64,000 bases of DNA from a virus (IMGVR_UViG_3300025137_005412:32001-96000), one strand, 5' to 3'; counted from the first letter of the stretch, positions 15,631-46,261 are shown. Notes: a model not told the origin generated them from the sequence alone. Numbers and translations are program-made.

Positions 15631-17148
15631 ATGACAAACAAAACAAGAACTATAATAGATCTTAGAAAACTTCCAGTTAAAGACTTGACTGATATAAGTT
15701 ATGGTGGTAAGTCATCATCTCTTGAAGAGATTGATACTGAAACATTTGCTACAGCAATAAACAAAATATCCAATACATTCTGTATAGCTAAATGGAAGCA
15801 AACAACATTACACCTACAAAATGGTCATACACATTCGTGTCACCATCCACAAACACATAAGATACCATGGCAAGAGTTGCAAACAAGACCATCAGCATTA
15901 CATAATACTACTAAGAAGATGATGATGCGTGATCAGATGAAGAACAATGTAAGACCACGTGAATGTGAGTATTGTTGGAGAGTAGAAGATGCTCGTAAAA
16001 AGAAAGGTGATCCTTGGTCAGATAGAATACATAAGAGTAGAGATCATTGGGCATTAAAACATTTACCTGAGATATTAAAGAATGATTCTACTTATGATGT
16101 ACCACCTTCATATCTTGAAGTATCATTCAGTAATGTATGTAATTTTAAATGTGCGTATTGTGCACCACATATATCATCTCAATGGATGCAGGAAATTAAA
16201 GCGAAAGGTGCATATCCAACATCAGCAAAATTCAACAACTTAGATTGGATTCAAAAAGAAGGTCTAATGCCAATACCAAACAATAAGCCAAATGTATATG
16301 TTGAAGCATTTTGGAAATGGTTCCCTGAAATATACAAACACCTTGAAGTATTTCGTATTACAGGTGGTGAACCGTTTATGTCTAAAGATACTATCAAGGT
16401 ACTAGACTTTTTAACAGATAATCCTGCACCTAACATGTCATTTGCTATCAATACTAATCTATGCATACCTGATAAGTTATTTGAACAAGTCATGGGTAAA
16501 TTAAAAAGACTTGTGGTTGAGAAGAAGATCAAGAATTTACACCTATTCACAAGTGCAGAAGCATACGGTAAGGCATCAGACTATATACGATTTGGTATGG
16601 ACTATGAGCTATGGTACAGAAATTGTCAATGGGTTATAAACAACATACCTGATGTAGATGAAAACAATCCTACAGTATTGACTATAATGTCTACAGTAAA
16701 CCTATTGAGTCTACCATCATATGTAAAGTTTATTCAAGATGTAAGTATGCTAAAGAAAGAAGCTAGTGTAAACATGAAGAATCCTAAGCTCTATGAAAGA
16801 GACTTAAAAAACATGTGTCCAGTAAGAGTTGACTTTCCATATCTTAGAAATCCTGAATTCTTGACTATGTTCCTATATCAAAATCCTAAGTTTAAGCTAG
16901 AAGGTAAGAAATGGATAGACAATGCCATATTTGCAGCTAAAATGGGTGGCTTTAATGAATATGAAATAGACAGAATGACTAGGCTCCTAAACACCTATAT
17001 GGGTGACCAAAGATGGACTGAGGTACAACGTACCAAGCATGAAAGAGACTTTAAAAAGTACATTATTGAATACGATAAGAGAAGAAGTGTTGATTTTGAT
17101 ACTGTTTTTCCTGAGTTAAAAACCTTTAAAGATAGTATAATACTATAG
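15631..17148 (+). CDS. Radical SAM protein with N-terminal twitch/SPASM-like Cys cluster
   Basis: CNFKCAYC, ITGGEP, INTN; N-terminal C..KW, SCHHP, CEYCW. Confidence 0.88.
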   Translation: MTNKTRTIIDLRKLPVKDLTDISYGGKSSSLEEIDTETFATAINKISNTFCIAKWKQTTLHLQNGHTHSCHHPQTHKIPWQELQTRPSALHNTTKKMMMRDQMKNNVRPRECEYCWRVEDARKKKGDPWSDRIHKSRDHWALKHLPEILKNDSTYDVPPSYLEVSFSNVCNFKCAYCAPHISSQWMQEIKAKGAYPTSAKFNNLDWIQKEGLMPIPNNKPNVYVEAFWKWFPEIYKHLEVFRITGGEPFMSKDTIKVLDFLTDNPAPNMSFAINTNLCIPDKLFEQVMGKLKRLVVEKKIKNLHLFTSAEAYGKASDYIRFGMDYELWYRNCQWVINNIPDVDENNPTVLTIMSTVNLLSLPSYVKFIQDVSMLKKEASVNMKNPKLYERDLKNMCPVRVDFPYLRNPEFLTMFLYQNPKFKLEGKKWIDNAIFAAKMGGFNEYEIDRMTRLLNTYMGDQRWTEVQRTKHERDFKKYIIEYDKRRSVDFDTVFPELKTFKDSIIL

Positions 17149-36007: not shown

Positions 36008-36271
36008 TTATACTAAGCCTTGCGCAATTGCTTGGTAGCCCGCTGCTACAACAGCTCGTGTTGGAGTACCTAAACGATACCTTAATGCACGAAGACTGCT
36101 AGATTTAGCAGGTCTGTTGCCGTAGATAGCATAACCTTTATTTCTAAGGTTTGCAACCACTGCAGTTGGGTTAGCCATGTTAAATCTGTCTCTCATTTGA
36201 GCAACAGTTAACTCAGCACCATTTGATAGAGCATCAATTACTTTGCTCTCTTGGGATTTTGTTTTAGCCAT
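36008..36271 (-). CDS. Small winged-HTH DNA-binding protein
   Basis: Likely start 36271 after RBS AAGGAG; L..G.ELT..Q...RF...NP.A.V..LR..GY; YRLGTP. Confidence 0.7.
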   Translation of the reverse strand: MAKTKSQESKVIDALSNGAELTVAQMRDRFNMANPTAVVANLRNKGYAIYGNRPAKSSSLRALRYRLGTPTRAVVAAGYQAIAQGLV

Positions 36272-36405
36272 TTGTATTTTCTCCTTACTTAGTCTAAAAA
36301 ATATGTTAATTAATTTTAACATCACGAATAGATTATACTCTTTATCTCGATTTTTTTCATTTTCTTTTAGAGTGAGTACCCGCACCCCCGCGGGTACACA
36401 CGGGT

Positions 36406-36413
36406 AATAAATA
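36406..36413 (+). promoter_or_regulatory. Late promoter AATAAATA
   Basis: Immediately before ORF 36418; preceded by GC hairpin 36377-36398. Confidence 0.6.
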
Positions 36414-36417
36414 ATGT

Positions 36418-37842
36418 ATGATGAAATGGTTGCTACTTCCTGTAGCTTTAACAATCTCTGCGATCGCTGCTTTCTACTCAATCTATGGATTGGTAGCTAT
36501 ATTTGCCGCGGCCGTGATACCAATTATAATCATGGGTACAGCCCTTGAGATTGGTAAACTTGTATCCGTTGTATATCTACATCAGTACTGGGTAGAAACT
36601 AAGTTTCTCTTAAAGAGCTATCTAGTGTTGGCTGTTGCACTTCTCATGTTTATTACATCATTAGGAATATTTGGATTCCTTTCTAAGGCTCATGTTGAGC
36701 AAGCATCTTTAAGTGAAGAGCAGGTTGCTTTAATTGAAACACTTGAAGATAAAGAAATCAGATCAGAATTAAAAATTGAAAGATGGAATAAAGAGCTAAC
36801 CAAGCTATTAAACAATGAAGATACACGTGTAGACACTCTTATAGGAAATGAGCAAGATCAACTCAATAGTTTATATGATAGAATTGATAAAGAAAAAACC
36901 ACAGCTGCTGATAGATTTGATAATGCTAAGGCTGCAGCAAACAAGGCTTACACTCAAAAAGTAAAAACAATCAATGATACAATAACAGGCTTTGGCTCTC
37001 AAAGTAAGAAGACAGATCAAATTGAAATTGCAAATGGTGAGCTTAAAAAAGAATTAAGTAGTATTGAAAAGAAATACAATAATGAAGTAGAAGATATTGA
37101 TACTAAATATAAAGACGAAATTTTAGAATTACAAAATGTAATTAAAGGTTATAGAAATCAAGTCACAGAAAAAACTGGTGATATTGATATAAAGATTGTT
37201 GAATTAGAATCTAAGATAGATGCTGAACAAAAAATAATTGATGAAGTCATTGGTGAAAAAGGAATCTATGAGAAAGAATATAGAAAGCTTGAAGCTGAAG
37301 TCGGACCAATTAAATATATTGCTGAACTTATCTATGGCGAAACTGATAGAGGTTTATTAGAAGATGCTGTAAGATGGGTTATTATTATATTAGTTATTGT
37401 ATTTGATCCTCTAGCGGTTGCGTTATTAATAGCATGGAATGATATTATAAAACGTGAATATCCAAGAAGTCCATATCCAATTCCTAAAATAAGAAAACCT
37501 GAACCGGTAGAACCAGAAAAAAAAACTGAAGAACCCGAAGAAGAAGAGCATTGGTTAGAAGAAGAACCAAAGGTTGAGGTTAAAGAAGAAGTTGAAGTAG
37601 AAAAGGATTACGAAAAAAGCCATTACTATAATATGGGTGGACAAAAAGTAAAAGCAAATCCTAAAACACTAAAAGACTTTATGGAAGAAACACCTGATTT
37701 CTTCGCGCAGCTAGCGGATGAAATGGGTGGAAGAGTAGAATATGATAGTGACGCTGCACAGATAGATGTTCCTGAAGATGTATTGGAACAATTACCTGAT
37801 GGTACTTATAGAAAGAAAGAACCGAAGCGTACAAGAATTTAA
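36418..37842 (+). CDS. Membrane protein with long coiled coil
   Basis: Three N-terminal TM helices (SLGIFGFLSKAH), coiled coil, EVGPIKYIA, TM with VFDPLA, acidic tail. Confidence 0.75.
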   Translation: MMKWLLLPVALTISAIAAFYSIYGLVAIFAAAVIPIIIMGTALEIGKLVSVVYLHQYWVETKFLLKSYLVLAVALLMFITSLGIFGFLSKAHVEQASLSEEQVALIETLEDKEIRSELKIERWNKELTKLLNNEDTRVDTLIGNEQDQLNSLYDRIDKEKTTAADRFDNAKAAANKAYTQKVKTINDTITGFGSQSKKTDQIEIANGELKKELSSIEKKYNNEVEDIDTKYKDEILELQNVIKGYRNQVTEKTGDIDIKIVELESKIDAEQKIIDEVIGEKGIYEKEYRKLEAEVGPIKYIAELIYGETDRGLLEDAVRWVIIILVIVFDPLAVALLIAWNDIIKREYPRSPYPIPKIRKPEPVEPEKKTEEPEEEEHWLEEEPKVEVKEEVEVEKDYEKSHYYNMGGQKVKANPKTLKDFMEETPDFFAQLADEMGGRVEYDSDAAQIDVPEDVLEQLPDGTYRKKEPKRTRI

Positions 37843-37851
37843 GGTTTTAAT

Positions 37852-38133
37852 ATGAAAGAGTTTATGATATTGCTAAGTGAATTTGGATTGCCAGTGGCTG
37901 GTGCAGTCGTAATGGCAGTATTCATTTATATTATATTAAGATATATTCTAGATTCAGTGGTTGGTCAAGCCACAACTCTCAAATCAATTATAACTCAATT
38001 AGATAATCGTGTTAAGAACATGAATAATGACATGATAAAACTCGATATACAAATAACTCATGTGTTAGGTTTAAAGCCAGATGAAGAACGTATATCAAGA
38101 GCCAATGGTAAAGAAGATGCGAGAAGAGATTAA
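37852..38133 (+). CDS. Small single-TM coiled-coil protein
   Basis: FGLP + TM + LDNRV..M.ND.IKL; paralog of next ORF. Confidence 0.65.
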   Translation: MKEFMILLSEFGLPVAGAVVMAVFIYIILRYILDSVVGQATTLKSIITQLDNRVKNMNNDMIKLDIQITHVLGLKPDEERISRANGKEDARRD

Positions 38134-38411
38134 TGAAAATCGTAATTGAAATTTTAACTGTATACGGATTTCCAACTTTAGCTGCTATAGCAATGGGTTG
38201 GTTTATTTGGTTTGTCTATAATTTCACTACAAAAAATATCAAAAAGAAACTTGGTGAAACTAATGTAGTTCTTATTGCTTTGTTAGATAGAATCAGAATG
38301 CTTGATAATGATATTATAAGATTGCGTTCTAAACTAGACACAATCATTCAGATGAAAGAGAATGAAAAGCCGTCTAAATCACATACCGTAACTAAAGATT
38401 CTAATAAATAA
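38133..38411 (+). CDS. Small single-TM coiled-coil protein
   Basis: YGFP + TM + LLDRI.MLDNDIIRL. Confidence 0.65.
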   Translation: MKIVIEILTVYGFPTLAAIAMGWFIWFVYNFTTKNIKKKLGETNVVLIALLDRIRMLDNDIIRLRSKLDTIIQMKENEKPSKSHTVTKDSNK

Positions 38412-38414
38412 TAT

Positions 38415-38930
38415 ATGATAAAAGCACAACTAAAGATAGGTGTGCTGCGTACTTGGGTTGTTATGTTTCTTGCGGTGATAGTGGCAGCCCTACTCCCGAC
38501 AAATCTCTCAGCTAGTGAACTGAACTTTGAGTTTGGCAACCCCGCATTCTCAAAGCAAGGCTACTCTTCACATGTATTATCTATCGAGCAATTACAATAT
38601 TCACGAGATAAAGATAACGAGAAAGATAAAAAATCAGAAGCAGCATCGGCAGAAAGAGATCTAAATAATACAACTATTGCTAAGTTTATTAAGAACGTAG
38701 AATCAAGAATTTATGCCAACCTTTCTAAACAATTGGTTGATAATATGTTTGGTACTAACTGTGTAAATACAGATGCCATTACATGTGCAACTTCAGGTAC
38801 CGCAGAAGTAGAAGGTGCCACAATATATTGGGTGAGAGACGATACTACTGATACAATAACTTTAACCGTAACTGATGATACAAATAATACTACAACAATC
38901 ACTGTTCCTATCGGAGACTTTCTTTTCTAA
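38415..38930 (+). CDS. csgF: Curli assembly protein CsgF-like
   Basis: Signal peptide then SELNFEFGNPAF..GYSSHVL; F...VESRIYA.LS.QL...FG; late promoter AATAAATA at 38403. Confidence 0.8.
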   Translation: MIKAQLKIGVLRTWVVMFLAVIVAALLPTNLSASELNFEFGNPAFSKQGYSSHVLSIEQLQYSRDKDNEKDKKSEAASAERDLNNTTIAKFIKNVESRIYANLSKQLVDNMFGTNCVNTDAITCATSGTAEVEGATIYWVRDDTTDTITLTVTDDTNNTTTITVPIGDFLF

Positions 38931-38939
38931 TAGAAATGT

Positions 38940-39770
38940 ATGCAGATGAAAACAATTGCACTTTTAACATTAATGTCATTGATGATAACTGGGTGTGTAA
39001 GCACTCCAGATAAGATAGATTATTATATTGATAAACCTGTTTTTGCACACAGTACTCCGACATCTGAATTACTAGAAACTTTACCAGCTCTTGATGGTGA
39101 TATTATTACTATTGCAGTATATAGTTTTTTAGATAAAACTGGTCAAAGAAAACCAAGTACAAAGTTTTCTCAATTATCAACAGCCATATCTCAAGGTGCA
39201 GATGTATGGGTTATACAAGCTTTAAAAGAAGCAGGTGATGGAACCTGGTTTAAAGTTGTTGAAAGAATGGGATTAGATAATGTAATAAAAGAAAGACAGC
39301 TTATACGTTCTACAAGAGAAGCGTATGATGGAGATCAAGCTGTAGGAAATTCTTTAAAGCCTCTAATATTTGCCGGTCTCTTATTAGAAGGTGGAGTCGT
39401 AGCCTACGATACTAATATCGATACAGGTGGAAGCGGCGCAAGATACTTTGGCATTGGTATATCTGAAGAATATCGGGTAGATCAAGTCACTGTTGCTATG
39501 AGAATCGTTGCTGTACAGACAGGCGAAGTTTTAATTACCGTATCAGGTACTAAAACAATTGCTAGTCATAAATCAGGAACGGATGTATTTAGATTTCTCG
39601 ATATGGGAACTAAAGCATTAGAAATAGAGAGCGGAGTTGCTATGAACGAGCCAGTAAATTATGCCATTCGATCAGCTATCGAATATTGCGTTATAGAAGT
39701 AATTAAACAAGGAAAAGACCAAGGTCTTTGGAAATATAAGGAGATAAAATATGAAAAAGATGTTCATTAG
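38940..39770 (+). CDS. csgG: Curli secretion channel CsgG (lipoprotein)
   Basis: Lipobox ITGC, AVYSF.DKTGQRKP, STA.SQG, WF.VVER.GL.N..KERQ.IR, GG.GARY.GIG, NEPV. Confidence 0.92.
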   Translation: MQMKTIALLTLMSLMITGCVSTPDKIDYYIDKPVFAHSTPTSELLETLPALDGDIITIAVYSFLDKTGQRKPSTKFSQLSTAISQGADVWVIQALKEAGDGTWFKVVERMGLDNVIKERQLIRSTREAYDGDQAVGNSLKPLIFAGLLLEGGVVAYDTNIDTGGSGARYFGIGISEEYRVDQVTVAMRIVAVQTGEVLITVSGTKTIASHKSGTDVFRFLDMGTKALEIESGVAMNEPVNYAIRSAIEYCVIEVIKQGKDQGLWKYKEIKYEKDVH

Positions 39771-40443
39771 CTTTTTAGTCATTTCGTTTCTTAGTTTAAC
39801 AGGTACATTATTAGCGAATGATATTTATGTCACACAAAGTGGTAATACACTTGACTTAGATATTACGCAAGATGGCCAAAACAATACTGTTGGTAATTCT
39901 ACCACATCATCATCGGTTGTAGGTGCTACATCTACTATTGATATTGATCAAGTAGGAAATAGTAATGTGTTAACTTTTGATGTTAACGGTGCTAGTTATA
40001 CCGGTACTTTTAGTACTACGGGTAATTCCAACAATATTGATTTTAATTGTGATAGTACTGCAGGAAATAGTTCATGTGCTACAGTCACAAGTAATATAAC
40101 ATGGGTTGGTAGTTCCAATGATTTAGATATAGACATTGGAGAAACCTCTGCGGCTGGTGGCGGTACAGTAGCTATAACAGGAGCAAGTGGTTCCGATTCA
40201 AACGTTATTGCTGCAACTGTCGATGGCACAAGCGCTATCTTAACCTTGACTGTTAACGGAGATACGAATAACTGGTTGATAGATATTGATGGTAATGGAG
40301 ACATTAACGGCCATACGTTAATTCACACCCATACCGGTGGTATTGCTGATGTAGATATAGTTCAGAGTGGTGTTAATGATGCCATTATAAACTTAACTAC
40401 TGTAGGTGATAATCACGATATTGATATAAGTCAAACAGACTAA
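39751..40443 (+). CDS. Secreted curlin-like beta-repeat protein
   Basis: Signal peptide; repeats of type I.Q.G..N; N/G/T/D-rich. Confidence 0.7.
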   Translation: MKKMFISFLVISFLSLTGTLLANDIYVTQSGNTLDLDITQDGQNNTVGNSTTSSSVVGATSTIDIDQVGNSNVLTFDVNGASYTGTFSTTGNSNNIDFNCDSTAGNSSCATVTSNITWVGSSNDLDIDIGETSAAGGGTVAITGASGSDSNVIAATVDGTSAILTLTVNGDTNNWLIDIDGNGDINGHTLIHTHTGGIADVDIVQSGVNDAIINLTTVGDNHDIDISQTD

Positions 40444-41570
40444 TGCGTGTTATAATAAAGAGTATTGCTCTCATTGTGGCGGTGAGTATAGTGTTTTTGT
40501 ATGGCAATAAAGTTTATGCTAATACCATAGGAGATGTCATATTACAAGAGGGCAATACTGTTATAGAACAAAGTGGAGAAGATAATATATCTGTCGAAGG
40601 ACTAGGTATATTTTCTTATGATGTCGTTAAGACGGGAAATGGTAAAACTGCTATCTCGTTTATTGACGACACTCGCGTTGATGTCACTGAACATTCAAAA
40701 CTCATAATTGACGAGTTTGTATTTGATCCTGTAAACAATAAAGGATCACTCTCATTGAAAGCAACTTTAGGAACTGTACGTTATGCTTCTGGCCAGATAG
40801 CAAAGAACTATGCACAGAACGTAAGTATAACTACTCCAACTGCAACAATCGGAGTAAGAGGAACTGATTTTAGTATGACCGTCGATGAAATTGGCGGATC
40901 AACAATTATACTATTACCATCATGCAATACAAGTGGATATTGTTATGTAGGAGAAATTGAAGTTGAAACAGATGCTGGATTTGTAATAATGAATCAAGCA
41001 TTCCAAGCAACTGTAGTCACAACAGGTGAAACAAAACCTATGAAGCCTGTCATCTTAGATCTAGATGAAACAATGATAGGTAATCTTTTAATAATTCAGA
41101 AACCACCAGAAATTAAAGAACAGCAAGAAAAAGCTGAGTATAATGAAGTAGCAAATGCTCTTGATATAGACTTCTTAGAATTTAATGATTTAGAAGTTGA
41201 TGAGCTTGAACTTGAAAATGATACATGGGCTACTGGTCTAGATATAGATTTTTTAGAACAAAACTTCTTAGTAGATGTATTAGATCAAATTAATAAAGAA
41301 CTTGCAAAAGCAATGAGATCAGCATTTGCAAAATCAGAACAAGATACTATTGGTAATATAAAACTTGGTAAGGATCCTGAAACTGGTATCTTTATATTAG
41401 ATGAAGATCCTCAATGGGTGTATGGTAGAGAAGGACCATCCAATTATTTTGAATTAAGATTAGATAGAGAGTTTGGATATATTATTAGTTTTACTCAAGG
41501 CGATTTTGAAATATATGACTTTGAATTAGGAGGACAGGATAATGAGATCCGCATTTTTCAAAGCAATTAG
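40443..41570 (+). CDS. Secreted FecR-domain protein
   Basis: Signal peptide; D.V.TG.G...I.F.D.T.V...EHS.L.ID; TPTATIGVRGTDF; G.IEV. Confidence 0.85.
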   Translation: MRVIIKSIALIVAVSIVFLYGNKVYANTIGDVILQEGNTVIEQSGEDNISVEGLGIFSYDVVKTGNGKTAISFIDDTRVDVTEHSKLIIDEFVFDPVNNKGSLSLKATLGTVRYASGQIAKNYAQNVSITTPTATIGVRGTDFSMTVDEIGGSTIILLPSCNTSGYCYVGEIEVETDAGFVIMNQAFQATVVTTGETKPMKPVILDLDETMIGNLLIIQKPPEIKEQQEKAEYNEVANALDIDFLEFNDLEVDELELENDTWATGLDIDFLEQNFLVDVLDQINKELAKAMRSAFAKSEQDTIGNIKLGKDPETGIFILDEDPQWVYGREGPSNYFELRLDREFGYIISFTQGDFEIYDFELGGQDNEIRIFQSN

Positions 41571-42861
41571 TATTCTATTTTTTGTTCTATTAATGAATGA
41601 TACTGTCGAAGCTGGTTCATTGAACTATGAGGTGTTTGCAATTACATCATACGCTCCATATTTAGAAGCACCTTGTTTTGATGGTGGTAATTATCTTTCT
41701 ACATGTAATAATACTAATCCAGCGTATAGAGGTGCTTCACAGGGAAGTGGTACTCTTGACAGTTTAAATTACAACTGGAATAGTGGCAATATTAATATTG
41801 GTGGCAATAATTATAGTGGATCATATAGAATGATAGTTATCACAGGATATTGGCAACATCCAGGAACTGCAGGTCAAACATCAACTGTATATTTTGCTGG
41901 TCGTAATGATGATGGTCTTATAGTAAATATTAATAATACTAAAGTAATATCTGACTGGGCACAACAAGGTCCAACATATTGGAACTCTAATGGTTCATTT
42001 TCTGGTGTGGGTGGTCAATGGTATCCGATAAATATAAACTGGTATGAATGGAGTGGTTCTGCCAATATGGATATTCATTATAGAATTGATGGTAATAATG
42101 CTACTAATACAACATCTGGTTGGTTAGATATGAACAACAATCATTTTGCCTTGACATTAACTGTGCAAGCAGGTATAACTTCATCTCAACAAACTTCAGT
42201 GACTAATACAAAGAATACATCAAGCACTACAAATAACATATACATAACACAAAGTGGTAGCAATGTAGATCTTAGTATACTACAAGATGGTGATAATAAT
42301 GTGGTGATAGGAACTGACTTAACATCTGCAGGTGTAATCAGTGGAGATAATAATGATGTAGATATAGCACAATATAGTAATAACAATATATTAGGAATTG
42401 ATATAAGCGGTAATTCAAATGATGTTGATATTTGGCAAGACCTAAATCAACGAGCAATAATAGATATTAATGGAGCATCAAACACTTTAGCTTTAAAACA
42501 AGAAGATCTCAATGGTTCAGGTGCTCACTATACTAACATAGATCTTGATGGTAATAACAATATACTAAGCTTATGGCAAAAAGAAACTGGTGATAAGATC
42601 TTATTTATGGATATTGGCAATAGTAATAACGTGACTACATTACAACATGGAACTGGTGATCATTTTCTTGATATAAATCTTGGTGATAGTCATACTGTAA
42701 ATGTAGAACAGGATGGTTCTGGAACTCATAATGCTTATATTAATTTGACAGGAAATTCTTCCTCACTTACATTAACACAAGATAGTTCAAGCAATATGAA
42801 TTATCATTTAAATCAGAATTGTACTAATCCAAGTTGCTCAGCAACGGTGACACAGAACTAA
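41542..42861 (+). CDS. Secreted protein: PA14-like domain plus curlin-like repeats
   Basis: NYNW.SG...ITGY...NDDG..V.IN...VI.DW..QG...G.WYPI.I.WYEW.G.A (PA14-like); C-terminal Q.G..N repeats. Confidence 0.7.
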   Translation: MRSAFFKAISILFFVLLMNDTVEAGSLNYEVFAITSYAPYLEAPCFDGGNYLSTCNNTNPAYRGASQGSGTLDSLNYNWNSGNINIGGNNYSGSYRMIVITGYWQHPGTAGQTSTVYFAGRNDDGLIVNINNTKVISDWAQQGPTYWNSNGSFSGVGGQWYPININWYEWSGSANMDIHYRIDGNNATNTTSGWLDMNNNHFALTLTVQAGITSSQQTSVTNTKNTSSTTNNIYITQSGSNVDLSILQDGDNNVVIGTDLTSAGVISGDNNDVDIAQYSNNNILGIDISGNSNDVDIWQDLNQRAIIDINGASNTLALKQEDLNGSGAHYTNIDLDGNNNILSLWQKETGDKILFMDIGNSNNVTTLQHGTGDHFLDINLGDSHTVNVEQDGSGTHNAYINLTGNSSSLTLTQDSSSNMNYHLNQNCTNPSCSATVTQN

Positions 42862-44726
42862 TGAAGAAAATATTTACACATTGGACATTTGCATTTGTCA
42901 CGCTCTTTATCCTTACATATATAGGATTACAAGATCCTACAGTAAAAGAAATATTACGTCTAAAATCATTTGACTTTCTTATTCAATCACAAGAAAAATC
43001 AATGTCAAAAGATATTATTATTGTAGAAATTGACGAGGCTACAATAGAAAAATACGGTCAATACCCATTTAACAGAAGTGTATATGCAGATCTAATATTA
43101 AAGTTAAGAGAGAATGAAGCTGGCGTAATTCTATTTCCAATATTATTTTCTGAAGAAGATAGACAAGGTGGTGATGAATACTTTGGAGATGTATTACAAT
43201 ATGGCACTGTTATTGCACAAGTAGGTACAACACAAATAAACAAGAATGCGGTACCAAGAGGTGTTGCAAAGATTGGAGATCCAATACCATTTTTATTTGA
43301 ATGGCCTGGAATGTTAGGACCGATTCCTGAATTAAAATCAAATGGTGTAGGTGTAATTAATACTGTACCTGAAATTGATGGTGTTGTAAGAAGAATACCA
43401 TTGCTTATGAGAATTGGTGAAGAAGTTTATCCGTCAATGGCAATTGAAATGATAAGAGTTGCAGTAGGTGATCCATCATACCAAGTGAAAGCTGATGCTA
43501 ATGGTATCACTGCTATGCGGGTACCCGGGTACGCGACCATACCCACGGACATGCATGCACGGGTCTGGTTGAATTATAATAAGACCTTTGATTCTATCTC
43601 ATTAGTAGACGACGACTTGCATTATGAACTAGTAAAAGGCAAAACAGTCATAGTTTCTTTAACCGCTGAAGGTCTTAATAACATTATAGCTACACCATTA
43701 GGTGAACAATATTCACATACAATAATAGCAAACAACATTCAAACAATTATTGATGGTGATAATATTATTAGAAATGATTTACAATTACTAGAACTTTTAA
43801 TTGCATTCATGGCTTCTGCTTGTTTTATAGCATTAACAAGAATAGCACCTTATTGGATTATTGGTGTAGGTCTTATTGGTGCATATATAGTGAGTGTATA
43901 TGGTACATACTTTATGTTTCATCAAACAAAAGAGATGTATGATGTAAGTTGGTTTCTTATCATGATTACATTTGTAAGTTTACATGCAATCTTTAATAGA
44001 TTCATACTAGAGTTTAATTTAAAACAACAAATAAGAAAACAATTTGAAAAGTATCTTGATCCAAGACAAGTTGCTATATTACAAAAGAATCCAGATAAGA
44101 TTAAACTAGGTGGTGATAGAAAAGAAATGAGTTTCTTATTTATGGATATTGTAGGTTTCACACCGATATCAGAACATTACAAAAATCAAGATGATCCAGA
44201 AGGATTAGTCGAAGTCATTAATGATTATCTAAATAGAATGACTAAGATTGTTTTAAGAAATGGTGGTACTGTAGACAAATATATGGGTGATTGTATTATG
44301 GCATTTTGGAATGCACCACTTGATTGTGATAATCATGCGGATCTTGCGGTACAAACAGCAATTGAATGTGCTGAAGAAACAGAAATAATTAAAGAAGAAT
44401 TTAAAGCAAAAGGTTTACCTGAAATTAATATTGGAAGTGGTGTAAATACTGGTACTTGTATTGTAGGTAATATGGGTAGTGAAATGAGATTAGATTATTC
44501 AGTGATTGGTGATTCAGTAAATCTTGCCGCTAGATTAGAAGCTGCAACTAGAAACTATAAAGATAAAGATGGTAATGTAGCTACATTATTATATTCACAA
44601 CATACTAAGGATTTACTAACTAATGTAGAGTCTATCGAAGTGGATAAGATAAAAGTTAAAGGTAAAGAAGAATTAATTACTATCTACTCACCACTATCTA
44701 CAAGTTCTGCTTCTAAACCTGGATAG
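42861..44726 (+). CDS. CHASE2-domain class III adenylyl cyclase
   Basis: N-terminal TM, CHASE2 (IIIVEIDE...GQYPF.R, DGVVRR.PL), 3 TM, FMDIVGFT, DKYMGD, YSVIGDSVNLAARLE, VKGK; probable start 42861 (TAATG). Confidence 0.93.
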   Translation: MKKIFTHWTFAFVTLFILTYIGLQDPTVKEILRLKSFDFLIQSQEKSMSKDIIIVEIDEATIEKYGQYPFNRSVYADLILKLRENEAGVILFPILFSEEDRQGGDEYFGDVLQYGTVIAQVGTTQINKNAVPRGVAKIGDPIPFLFEWPGMLGPIPELKSNGVGVINTVPEIDGVVRRIPLLMRIGEEVYPSMAIEMIRVAVGDPSYQVKADANGITAMRVPGYATIPTDMHARVWLNYNKTFDSISLVDDDLHYELVKGKTVIVSLTAEGLNNIIATPLGEQYSHTIIANNIQTIIDGDNIIRNDLQLLELLIAFMASACFIALTRIAPYWIIGVGLIGAYIVSVYGTYFMFHQTKEMYDVSWFLIMITFVSLHAIFNRFILEFNLKQQIRKQFEKYLDPRQVAILQKNPDKIKLGGDRKEMSFLFMDIVGFTPISEHYKNQDDPEGLVEVINDYLNRMTKIVLRNGGTVDKYMGDCIMAFWNAPLDCDNHADLAVQTAIECAEETEIIKEEFKAKGLPEINIGSGVNTGTCIVGNMGSEMRLDYSVIGDSVNLAARLEAATRNYKDKDGNVATLLYSQHTKDLLTNVESIEVDKIKVKGKEELITIYSPLSTSSASKPG

Positions 44727-46261
44727 TAGTTATCCCCGTAAATTTGTTTCTTTGCATAGTTGTAGGCAAATGCAGCGGTCTTTCTTTCCATATGTTCCCA
44801 ATTAATATCTTTTTGTTTTGTATGTTGTATCTTTCTAAAGTCTTCATCAATAGCTGTTAATTGCATGAGTCTAAATCCAGCAGGCTTAACAAATTCGTTA
44901 GAAGCATAATTGAATTCAACACATGCTCTATTTGCTGTAGATGAATTGAAGTTTCCTTGTTTCCAATATAATCCATTACCTGGAATAGGAAACTTATATC
45001 CCCATTTCTGAGCATCTCTATCAAACTTACTCATTTGTATTTCACCTGGTTTTTCATGTTGATTAATATAAAGTGCTTGAAAAATCCAATATCCAGGTTG
45101 ATGTTTTACTAACCAATCCCATGTCTCTTGTAAATTTTCTTGTGTTTCTCCTGGTAATCCAATAATAAATCCTAATTCAAATGTGATTTCATCTTTCCAA
45201 TCATTCATTAATTCTTCCATGAATTCTTTACCCATTCTACCATTCCAACCTTTACCAATTGCTTTCGAAGCTTCTGGATGAAATGATTCGATACCAAAGA
45301 ATGGTGATACTAATCCTATCTCTCTTAATAAATCTTTCTGCGCTTTCCTTGCCCATATTAAATCCAATCTATGATAACCTACATACTTTAAATCAAATGG
45401 CAAGTCACTTGATATTTTTGCAAGTTGTTCCATCTTATCCATATCCTCATTAAATGTATCATCAGTAAAGATATATTTTGTTGTACCGAATGTTTCATAG
45501 TTATATAAGAACTCATCTTCAATTCTCTTGTAATCTCTTATATAAGTTCCTTTCTTTTTTCCAATTAGTGGATATGAACAGAATGAACATTCAAATTGAC
45601 AGCCTCTACCCATCTCCATAAGTAAAGCTTCATTAGAACCTATAGATAAGTTAGTACCAATGTACGCACGATTTGATTGTTTTATATCAAAATCTTTTCT
45701 TACACCAGCAAAATTACTTCTTTCATCGAGATATTTTAAGAAAGCATCTTCAGCAAAGCCATGAATCTTTCTCCAATTAAATTCCATATTACCATAGTGT
45801 GATTGTGAACCTCCCATTACCCAATCTAATTTTGGATATTTTCTTTCTAATTCTGTTCTTGCATTAATTACCCAGTAAGGTTCTTCAGTTCTATTTGGAC
45901 CAGCCATCATATTAGTAAAGTTCTGATCGAATAGTTTTCTTTTTTGTGTTGGATCGTTTGAATGACCGACTTGATCACCAACTGATGTAGTGTATGTATT
46001 TGTTTTTTGAGAACCTTTTGCTTTCTTCATCCTTACACTTGGATGCCAGAAAGATGTACTTACACCGATACCAATTGTTTCAGGACCGATATGTTTCTCA
46101 TTAATTTCTATAAAATCTTTGTGTTGTAGTAAATGACTGAAGTCAATTACTTTTACGTTGTACCCATGTTGAATACACCATGACGCAAGTTGATGTGGAC
46201 CTAATGGTCTTATTGGAGCGTAATCCTCCGCAAGACAATTCCATATAACAAAATGCGCCAT
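44684..46261 (-). CDS. B12-binding-type radical SAM protein
   Basis: RPLGP..LA, GRGCQFECSFC, DDTFN, FGIESF, FIIGLPGET. Confidence 0.85.
   Translation of the reverse strand: MAHFVIWNCLAEDYAPIRPLGPHQLASWCIQHGYNVKVIDFSHLLQHKDFIEINEKHIGPETIGIGVSTSFWHPSVRMKKAKGSQKTNTYTTSVGDQVGHSNDPTQKRKLFDQNFTNMMAGPNRTEEPYWVINARTELERKYPKLDWVMGGSQSHYGNMEFNWRKIHGFAEDAFLKYLDERSNFAGVRKDFDIKQSNRAYIGTNLSIGSNEALLMEMGRGCQFECSFCSYPLIGKKKGTYIRDYKRIEDEFLYNYETFGTTKYIFTDDTFNEDMDKMEQLAKISSDLPFDLKYVGYHRLDLIWARKAQKDLLREIGLVSPFFGIESFHPEASKAIGKGWNGRMGKEFMEELMNDWKDEITFELGFIIGLPGETQENLQETWDWLVKHQPGYWIFQALYINQHEKPGEIQMSKFDRDAQKWGYKFPIPGNGLYWKQGNFNSSTANRACVEFNYASNEFVKPAGFRLMQLTAIDEDFRKIQHTKQKDINWEHMERKTAAFAYNYAKKQIYGDNYYPGLEAELVDSGE

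Follow-up and report, generated by a model that had tools for sequence, protein, structure and literature searches.

A phage-borne curli-type secretion cassette that includes a FecR-fold adaptor and a CHASE2 adenylate cyclase

We analyzed a 64,000-nucleotide stretch of viral DNA (IMGVR_UViG_3300025137_005412:32001-96000; hereafter the window, in whose own numbering all positions are given) that carries on its plus strand a compact cluster of genes for a curli-type secretion system (type VIII secretion system, T8SS), a FecR-fold protein and a CHASE2 adenylate cyclase. The parent of the window is an IMG/VR virus record of 152 kb, and the gene set of the window, at ~33% GC, is of the T4 type (a DnaB-like helicase, a baseplate hub, a DNA alpha-glucosyltransferase and radical SAM proteins). 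The region flagged in a preliminary description of this DNA is 69.6% identical in nucleotide sequence to the Pelagibacter phage HTVC008M across 73% of the region length and 67.7% identical to the Methylophilales phage Melnitz, and the records of both phages are annotated with an identical cassette gene order. Judged from its sequence, the source of the window is an HTVC008M-like pelagimyophage. The locus is another member of a published type of phage cassette, whose gene composition was already given by Wittmers et al. 2022 (PMC9599517): CsgF, CsgG, CsgA/B, FecR, a second CsgA/B and adenylate cyclase, found in podovirus and myovirus pelagiphages in the same order as here. Genes of the pelagiphage cassette were detected at 65/65 GOV2.0 stations and in metatranscriptomes (PMC9599517).

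Six genes of the window follow one another closely on the plus strand. They encode a CsgF-like outer-membrane accessory protein with a signal peptide (38415-38930), the CsgG lipoprotein secretion channel (38940-39770), a putative secreted curlin-repeat protein of 230 amino acids that we call Cur1 (39751-40443), a FecR-fold periplasmic adaptor of 375 amino acids (40443-41570), a putative secreted protein modeled as a PA14-fold head joined to a curlin-type beta-solenoid (PA14Cur; 41542-42861), and an inner-membrane CHASE2 sensor joined to a class IIIb adenylate cyclase (42861-44726; 621 amino acids from its ATG). The junctions between csgF and the cyclase gene measure -29 to +9 nt, in agreement with the tight packing reported in the preliminary description, and the export or membrane signals that it assigned to every product were also recovered by a hydropathy heuristic, in the form of an N-terminal hydrophobic signal or anchor, a lipobox or transmembrane segments. 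For the cyclase, the most likely start codon is the ATG at 42861, whose overlap with the stop codon before it reads TAATG, rather than the TTG at 42834. The conserved unit is wider than first described, as it includes two small transmembrane genes at 37852-38411 (sm1 and sm2), and thus comprises eight conserved genes.

CsgF scored 43.2 bits against PF10614 (cut-off 25.8; E 5.3e-11) and matched phrog_35372 (2e-56); phmmer returned no match to solved structures, including the solved CsgF. CsgG matched PF03783 (6.2e-53) and aligned over its full length (residues 9-267) with E. coli CsgG (3X2R/6L7A; 173 bits, 6e-50). Its lipobox (..ITGC) lies at residues 16-19, and its constriction loop reads S-Q-L, compared with S-N-F in E. 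coli. The reported lack of CsgE was borne out, as PF10627 was not found in the 152 kb phage record, nor in either of the two Caulobacteraceae genomes described below, the E. coli control being positive. The same lack has been noted in pelagiphages and reported for alphaproteobacterial systems (PMC9599517). CsgD, too, went unseen in the preliminary description, no search having been aimed at it or at CsgC. The locus resembles the E. coli curli genes (csgBAC-csgDEFG) in its CsgG channel, CsgF and putative curlin-repeat substrates, but differs from them in lacking CsgE, in its altered constriction loop, and in having a FecR adaptor and a CHASE2 cyclase inside the operon.

Although Buchholz et al. 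2022 (PMC9004378) stated that csgA/B are lacking, two genes of the cassette resemble curlins. Cur1 contains strands of the Q-x-G-x-x-N type, ends in ..IDISQTD, and matches the repeat half of the second curlin with an hhalign probability of 99.9%. A weak profile match links a curlin to the solved curlin-repeat protein 8C50 (E 0.1), and the model of PA14Cur contains a beta-solenoid at residues 232-438 (predicted local distance difference test, pLDDT, 80-90). At residues 27-181 of PA14Cur, Foldseek recovered a PA14 fold (E 5e-6, probability 1.0) with Flo/Epa adhesins and a Marinomonas PA14 sugar-binding domain as matches, the latter with a TM-score of 0.64. Residues D123-D124-G125 of this head are invariant among 20 homologues and align with the DDG motif of RsgI3, which makes them candidate Ca2+- or carbohydrate-binding residues.

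The preliminary description had this lectin-fold head displayed outside the cell, for example to sense sibling, possibly glycosylated, virions, with the resulting signal tuning lysis or exclusion. Confirmation of the PA14 fold and the presence of glycosyltransferase genes within the window are both in keeping with that idea. However, the head is limited to 52 close protein clusters, and a plain second curlin that lacks it is found in most cassettes, including that of Melnitz and the cellular copies described below. The head is therefore a lineage-specific addition, and lectin display cannot be the core logic of the cassette. As sugar binding by the head is only putative and no reader for cyclic AMP (cAMP) was recognized (see below), we regard sensing of sibling virions as extremely unlikely.

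To place the cassette among other genomes, we scanned one genome per species (185,579 species) with a 10-sequence FecR alignment, a 26-sequence alignment being too divergent for this use, and the best 80 loci were kept and annotated with phmmer. Loci were called phage or cellular from PHROG and Pfam scans of their flanks, the number of genes shared with the window being too insensitive. Relatives of the FecR adaptor are numerous (>7,500 close relatives in a 90% identity database; 11,829 representatives at E<1e-3 in a 50% identity library), and csgG accompanied FecR in 15 of the best 80 loci. The adaptor shares 65% amino-acid identity with its counterpart in HTVC008M and 54% with that in Melnitz. 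The array csgF-csgG-curlin-FecR-(curlin)-cyclase is kept at FecR identities as low as 34-39%, in these two cultured phages and in two cellular genomes, so the linkage of FecR and the cyclase to csgG on which the preliminary description relied holds well beyond the window.

The two cellular genomes (loci L018 and L020) belong to the Caulobacteraceae, and each contains csgF, csgG, two curlins, FecR and a CHASE2 cyclase between cellular genes. The L018 flanks encode glycosyltransferases, an OmpA-like protein, a TonB-dependent receptor and an S9 peptidase; those of L020 encode a methylmalonyl-CoA mutase, an acyl-CoA dehydrogenase, an amidohydrolase and a TetR regulator. The six genes of the two loci are 70-96% identical in amino-acid sequence and no flanking gene is common to both, therefore the six-gene core is a discrete mobile unit. 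These loci qualify the published statement that FecR, histidine kinase and adenylate cyclase fall outside bacterial T8SS operons (PMC9599517). Such copies are sparse, as a full-length FecR of the cassette type was present in 1/401 sampled alphaproteobacterial genomes, that one being the seed genome. In a quick tree the cellular copies formed an unresolved three-way split with the phage lineages, and the GC content of the cellular cassettes (0.51-0.53) is 4-6 points lower than that of their flanks (0.56-0.59). We claim no donor for the transfer. Because cells also carry the six-gene core, work on the cassette need not depend on a phage that is difficult to culture.

Other contigs in the scan have different settings. 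Low-GC cassette contigs assigned to metagenome-assembled genomes (MAGs) of Flavobacteriaceae, Legionellales, Pirellulales, Luteolibacter, Polynucleobacter and others (L008-L017) are probably phage contamination; the one from the Luteolibacter bin (L015) is clearly phage, with a T4-type DNA polymerase and ligase in its flanks. On a Nisaea MAG contig (L022:420-8919, GC 0.52), a full cassette adjoins an integrase and a Cas4-like exonuclease; the carrier, which integrates, may be either a temperate phage or some integrative element. A Pycsar-type effector was considered and rejected as a part of the system: a PycTM gene (8.8e-25; L018:13569-14162) lies directly 3' of the cyclase in L018 only, and none was found in L020, the other loci or the window.

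The FecR adaptor scored 35.3 bits against PF04773 (cut-off 24; E 1.6e-8). Its structural model (overall pLDDT 77, >90 at residues 30-205) consists of a hydrophobic signal or anchor helix (residues 2-20), a FecR/PupR-type beta-domain (30-205), a disordered acidic linker (213-276) whose LDxDxL motifs recur in 19/26 homologues, a helix, and a six-stranded C-terminal domain (316-373) that ends in a curlin-like strand. The beta-domain superposed on PupR (6OVK, Z 15.4) and on a Parabacteroides anti-sigma factor (4M0N, Z 14.4). Residues 26-120 also superposed on the plug of MpIBP (5IX9; Z 7.5, root-mean-square deviation 2.1 A over 73 residues, 25% identity, VIA-align), a match that may reflect a shared arrangement only. 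By these superpositions the domain shares its fold with periplasmic modules that dock beneath outer-membrane channels. In FecR/PupR anti-sigma factors this periplasmic fold docks on an outer-membrane transducer, but the cassette contains no anti-sigma domain, no extracytoplasmic function (ECF) sigma factor and no TonB-dependent transducer, and the C-terminal half of the adaptor is unrelated to those proteins. Because the hydrophobic helix begins at residue 2, the adaptor has no cytoplasmic domain; the N-terminal anti-sigma domain is thus not present, and the protein is therefore not a FecR-type iron regulator. A periplasmic domain tied to a filament through an outer-membrane pore is also known from the retention module of RTX adhesins (MpIBP RIN, LapA; PMC5550230), although these are secreted by a type I secretion system with TolC.

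A strand with the pattern phi-x-phi-x-Q-x-x forms the C-terminus of Cur1, of the FecR adaptor and of PA14Cur. This terminal strand was present in 13/15 FecR homologues from loci with csgG and in 2/74 from loci without visible csgG, compared with 12/19 curlin-like open reading frames (ORFs) and a background of 55/2182 among all other ORFs. The two csgG-linked exceptions are a protein that ends in ..ITITQ and one with ambiguous bases, and both positives without visible csgG lie on contigs that are cut directly upstream of FecR. Both cellular copies keep the strand in FecR, and the 26-sequence FecR alignment shows I371 in every sequence and Q373 conserved to at least 90%. In hhalign comparisons the FecR C-terminus matched curlins at E ~1e-3, aligning end-to-end with Cur1, compared with ~0.1 for control pairs; a phmmer search of the C-terminal 76 residues against solved structures gave nothing useful. 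A FecR tail that is specific to loci with csgG fits a physical link of the fiber or channel with the periplasmic adaptor, and it provides a precise handle on the coupling of fiber and sensor. A complex prediction of FecR residues 27-212 with the periplasmic part of CHASE2 (residues 24-305), supplied as alignments, returned a score of 0.00 with controls not run, which is evidence neither way.

FecR and CHASE2 also occur together outside such cassettes. A FecR-domain gene adjoins a CHASE2 cyclase gene, with no csgG, in Omnitrophota, Myxococcota, Spirochaetales and many Alphaproteobacteria, and a FecR-CHASE2 pair with a histidine-kinase output has been described in Burkholderia (PMC5192318); by gene neighborhood, FecR-CHASE2 is a general bacterial pair. 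Each cultured Pelagibacter strain encodes a single CHASE2 protein, which has a PP2C phosphatase output; the gene forms a tight operon with those for an IalB-like protein, an 874-amino-acid FecR-domain protein and two further proteins of unknown function. In Pelagibacter ubique HIMB4 (L026:6013-13277) the order is IalB-like protein, CHASE2-PP2C (SpoIIE), a 465-amino-acid protein of unknown function, the 874-amino-acid FecR-domain protein and a 233-amino-acid protein of unknown function. The CHASE2-PP2C gene and the large FecR-domain gene recur together across several other Pelagibacter genomes. With FecR-CHASE2 pairs common in bacteria, the cassette is of wider relevance.

This wide distribution bears on an account in which the adaptor serves secretion alone, standing in for CsgE/CsgB by helping to secrete, nucleate or cap the curlins, with a cyclase that senses some other periplasmic cue and is only genetically linked. 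Such a role would suit the missing CsgE, the C-terminal strand common to FecR and the curlins, and a weak match of the FecR C-terminal profile to CsgF (E 1e-3). But FecR-CHASE2 adjacency is widespread without a T8SS, so that the FecR domain serves CHASE2 in its own right, and the cyclase is co-inherited with the T8SS as a single clade. We consider a pure secretion role unlikely.

The CHASE2 (PF05226, 2.9e-42) and Guanylate_cyc (3.8e-18) domains of the co-inherited cyclase both scored above their cut-offs, the latter region matching P. aeruginosa CyaB (3R5G) at 118 bits. One transmembrane segment near the N-terminus precedes the periplasmic CHASE2 domain, and three more lie between the CHASE2 and cyclase domains. 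The catalytic set named in the preliminary description is intact, with metal-binding D438 and D486, the substrate lysine K482, S556 at the second specificity position, and the transition-state residues N564 and R568 (630-amino-acid numbering), and the predicted product is cAMP. In a quick maximum-likelihood tree, all T8SS-linked cyclases formed one clade (99% support) and bacterial cyclases paired with FecR alone grouped separately (100% support), so that the T8SS-linked cyclases have a single origin in this phylogeny. One phage subclade (the L010-L013 and L015 cyclases) has Lys-Asp, with Asp at the second specificity position; the substitutions in this subclade may reflect a changed activity or a local alignment shift.

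From these data we propose that the cassette makes a secreted curlin fiber and that the FecR adaptor couples the state of this fiber to the CHASE2 adenylate cyclase, a reading in which we place roughly even confidence. CsgG and CsgF would form an outer-membrane channel in the infected cell, one that the host lacks. This channel would export the two curlin-repeat proteins, and these would assemble by stacking into a short beta-solenoid fiber, which in this lineage would carry the lectin-fold (PA14) head. The adaptor would stay in the periplasm with its N-terminal domain near the inner membrane, and its acidic linker would lead to the C-terminal domain, whose last strand would mimic a curlin repeat and engage the fiber base or the channel. 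With the adaptor as intermediary, the cyclase would turn the state of the fiber, or of secretion, into a cAMP signal. The proposal starts from the gene content, the folds, the catalytic residues, the co-inheritance of the six genes in phages and cells, the single origin of the T8SS-linked cyclases, and the covariation of the C-terminal strand with csgG; from there we infer fiber formation, the physical contacts, the direction of signaling and cAMP as the product.

There is a precedent for such a relay in S. meliloti, where the outer-membrane protein NsrA relays a plant signal to CHASE2 cyclases (PMC13001267). As in the proposed system, CHASE2 cyclases (CyaD1/D2/K) there answer an external protein signal via an outer-membrane protein, and a FecR-domain gene lies beside cyaD1. 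The outer-membrane partner is, however, a beta-barrel, and cAMP is read by the CRP-type protein Clr, whereas the phage has a T8SS and no known reader. The trans-envelope relay of the preliminary description thus stands in part: csgG linkage, the curlin-like FecR tail, a docking-type fold and the NsrA precedent speak for it, and the S. meliloti system also yields a result that does not.

That result is the first of several that weigh against the coupling of fiber to cyclase: the S. meliloti FecR-domain gene smc02177, in the same cluster as cyaD1, is dispensable for signal perception (PMC5498481). The Curlin_rpt scores of Cur1 (17.3 bits) and PA14Cur (20.4 bits) fall just short of the 20.7 cut-off, the PA14 Pfam score (19.3 bits) is likewise below cut-off, and the likeness of the FecR C-terminus to curlins is suggestive rather than firm because its hhalign probability is ~20%. 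The phage subclade mentioned above has Ser at the transition-state Asn position of its cyclases. Melnitz gave no clumping (Buchholz et al., PMC9004378). Searches of the phage record and of four Pelagibacter genomes recovered no cNMP-binding (cyclic nucleotide-binding; PF00027) and no GAF (PF01590) domain, with positive controls, and PF00211 was not found in those four genomes (controls positive), indicating no host cyclase. Finally, the phage record is only 85% complete, and Pelagibacter is its presumed host.

As neither a cNMP-binding nor a GAF domain was found in the phage and the four Pelagibacter genomes, cAMP would be made without a recognized receiver, and the earlier suggestion that cAMP tunes lysis finds no known reader in either. 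CsgG was also not found in the four Pelagibacter genomes, so that the host would have no T8SS of its own; on this evidence the phage would bring in a secretion system and a second messenger that are both foreign to its host. Any effect of cAMP in the presumed host must pass through an undescribed receptor.

These observations bear equally on the role proposed in the literature, in which curli serve aggregation ("sibling capture", put forward by Zaragoza-Solas et al. 2020, PMC7029224, for csgF and csgG in pelagimyophages) or form a barrier to superinfection, and FecR and the cyclase, as separate elements, only regulate expression, on the model of cAMP-CRP and CsgD in E. coli (Zaragoza-Solas 2020; Wittmers 2022). 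A complete secretion set with curlin-repeat substrates and a head of adhesin type would serve that purpose, and the published proposals count in its favor. However, with no CRP-type cNMP-binding or GAF domain, and hence no recognizable receptor, the analogy with cAMP-CRP and CsgD is weakened. Furthermore, there are no reports of a CsgD-like regulator, the FecR protein lacks an anti-sigma domain, its csgG-specific tail implies a structural rather than a transcriptional link, and the failure of Melnitz to clump argues against aggregation. We judge this role somewhat improbable.

The two small genes upstream of csgF extend the comparison with published cassettes. sm1 (37852-38133, plus strand; 93 amino acids; phrog_18771, 3e-31) encodes a single-pass membrane protein that is hydrophobic over residues 3-38 and has a C-terminal coiled-coil-like helix, and sm2 (38133-38411, plus strand; 92 amino acids; phrog_18771, 7e-29), whose start overlaps the sm1 stop by 1 nt, is its paralogue; the two share the motif L-D-x-R-x(4,5)-N-D. 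Across 30 homologues there is no conserved His, and neither protein gave a Pfam match at E 0.01. At the upstream end of the cassette, Wittmers et al. 2022 (PMC9599517) reported a "histidine kinase". Contrary to that label, which was given to the podovirus version, the myovirus sm1 and sm2 (92-93 amino acids) are by these comparisons not histidine kinases. The window differs from the published cassettes, HTVC008M and Melnitz among them, in the PA14 head on its second curlin, and from the podovirus annotation in upstream genes that are single-pass and without a conserved His.

Homologues of sm1 and sm2 were found in viral clusters only and, in phages, always linked to the cassette, which they accompany in L006, L008-L013, L015-L017 and L023 even when relocated; they are not present in the cellular copies. 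On the Rickettsiales MAG contig L023 (5180-15362), the CHASE2 cyclase is followed by sm1 and sm2 homologues, with a 1327-amino-acid FecR-domain protein upstream and no csgG, an arrangement that suggests that sm1 and sm2 belong with the cyclase and not with the T8SS. In a stronger form of the proposed coupling, the cassette would be a self-contained trans-envelope sensor of contact or tension, installed by the phage in a host without cAMP signaling of its own, in which a fiber threaded through CsgG is tethered by the FecR tail to the cyclase, and cAMP is read by a non-canonical phage receptor, for which sm1 and sm2 are candidates, to control lysis timing or superinfection exclusion. We find this version decidedly unlikely.

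A different role was proposed by Buchholz et al. 2022 (PMC9004378), who assigned CsgG and CsgF a pinholin- or secretin-like part in lysis timing and did not mention the FecR and cyclase genes. On that view the two proteins are repurposed as a gated pore that times lysis, and no fiber is made. Constriction residues unlike those of E. coli agree with it, as do sm1 and sm2, which are always linked to the phage cassette, do not occur in cellular copies and could be membrane proteins of a lysis type. Yet two conserved genes for secreted curlin-repeat proteins sit within the cassette, and the six genes also occur in cellular genomes that offer no lysis context, so we hold a lysis pore to be very improbable.

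Set beside the published work, several observations are new here: the six-gene core in two Caulobacteraceae, the csgG-linked curlin-like tail of FecR, the single clade of T8SS-linked cyclases and the lack of a known cAMP reader in the presumed host. Also new are the finding that sm1 and sm2 travel with phage cassettes and are not histidine kinases, and the lineage-specific nature of the PA14 head. In the literature searched, we found no mention of CsgG together with CHASE2.

Expression signals around the cassette were few. The motif TATAAATA is absent upstream of the cassette and has only two copies in the whole window; a near-match, TAATAAATA, lies at 36405-36413. A scan for sigma-70 promoters and terminators gave a signal at chance level, which leaves the "late" timing named in the preliminary description unsupported. 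A polytopic membrane protein of 474 amino acids with transmembrane segments is encoded at 36418-37842 (plus strand), ending 9 nt upstream of sm1. It had zero PHROG matches and no significant Pfam match, and its position in HTVC008M and Melnitz is occupied by unrelated genes; the gene is possibly co-transcribed with the cassette and is outside the conserved cassette. Just 5' of it, a GC-rich palindrome (GTACCCGC..GCGGGTAC) at 36376-36406 is followed by TAATAAATA, and a related element, GTACCCGGGTAC, has been reported inside the cyclase gene at ~43517-43566.

At the other end of the cassette, a radical SAM gene (44684-46261, minus strand) runs toward the cyclase gene, the two sharing 43 nt at the 3' end of the latter; a second radical SAM gene lies at 15631-17148 (plus strand). 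A small gene at 36008-36270 (minus strand) is divergent from the cassette strand and has a strong AAGGAGA ribosome-binding site; the 157-amino-acid ORF listed at this position probably starts at an internal ATG.

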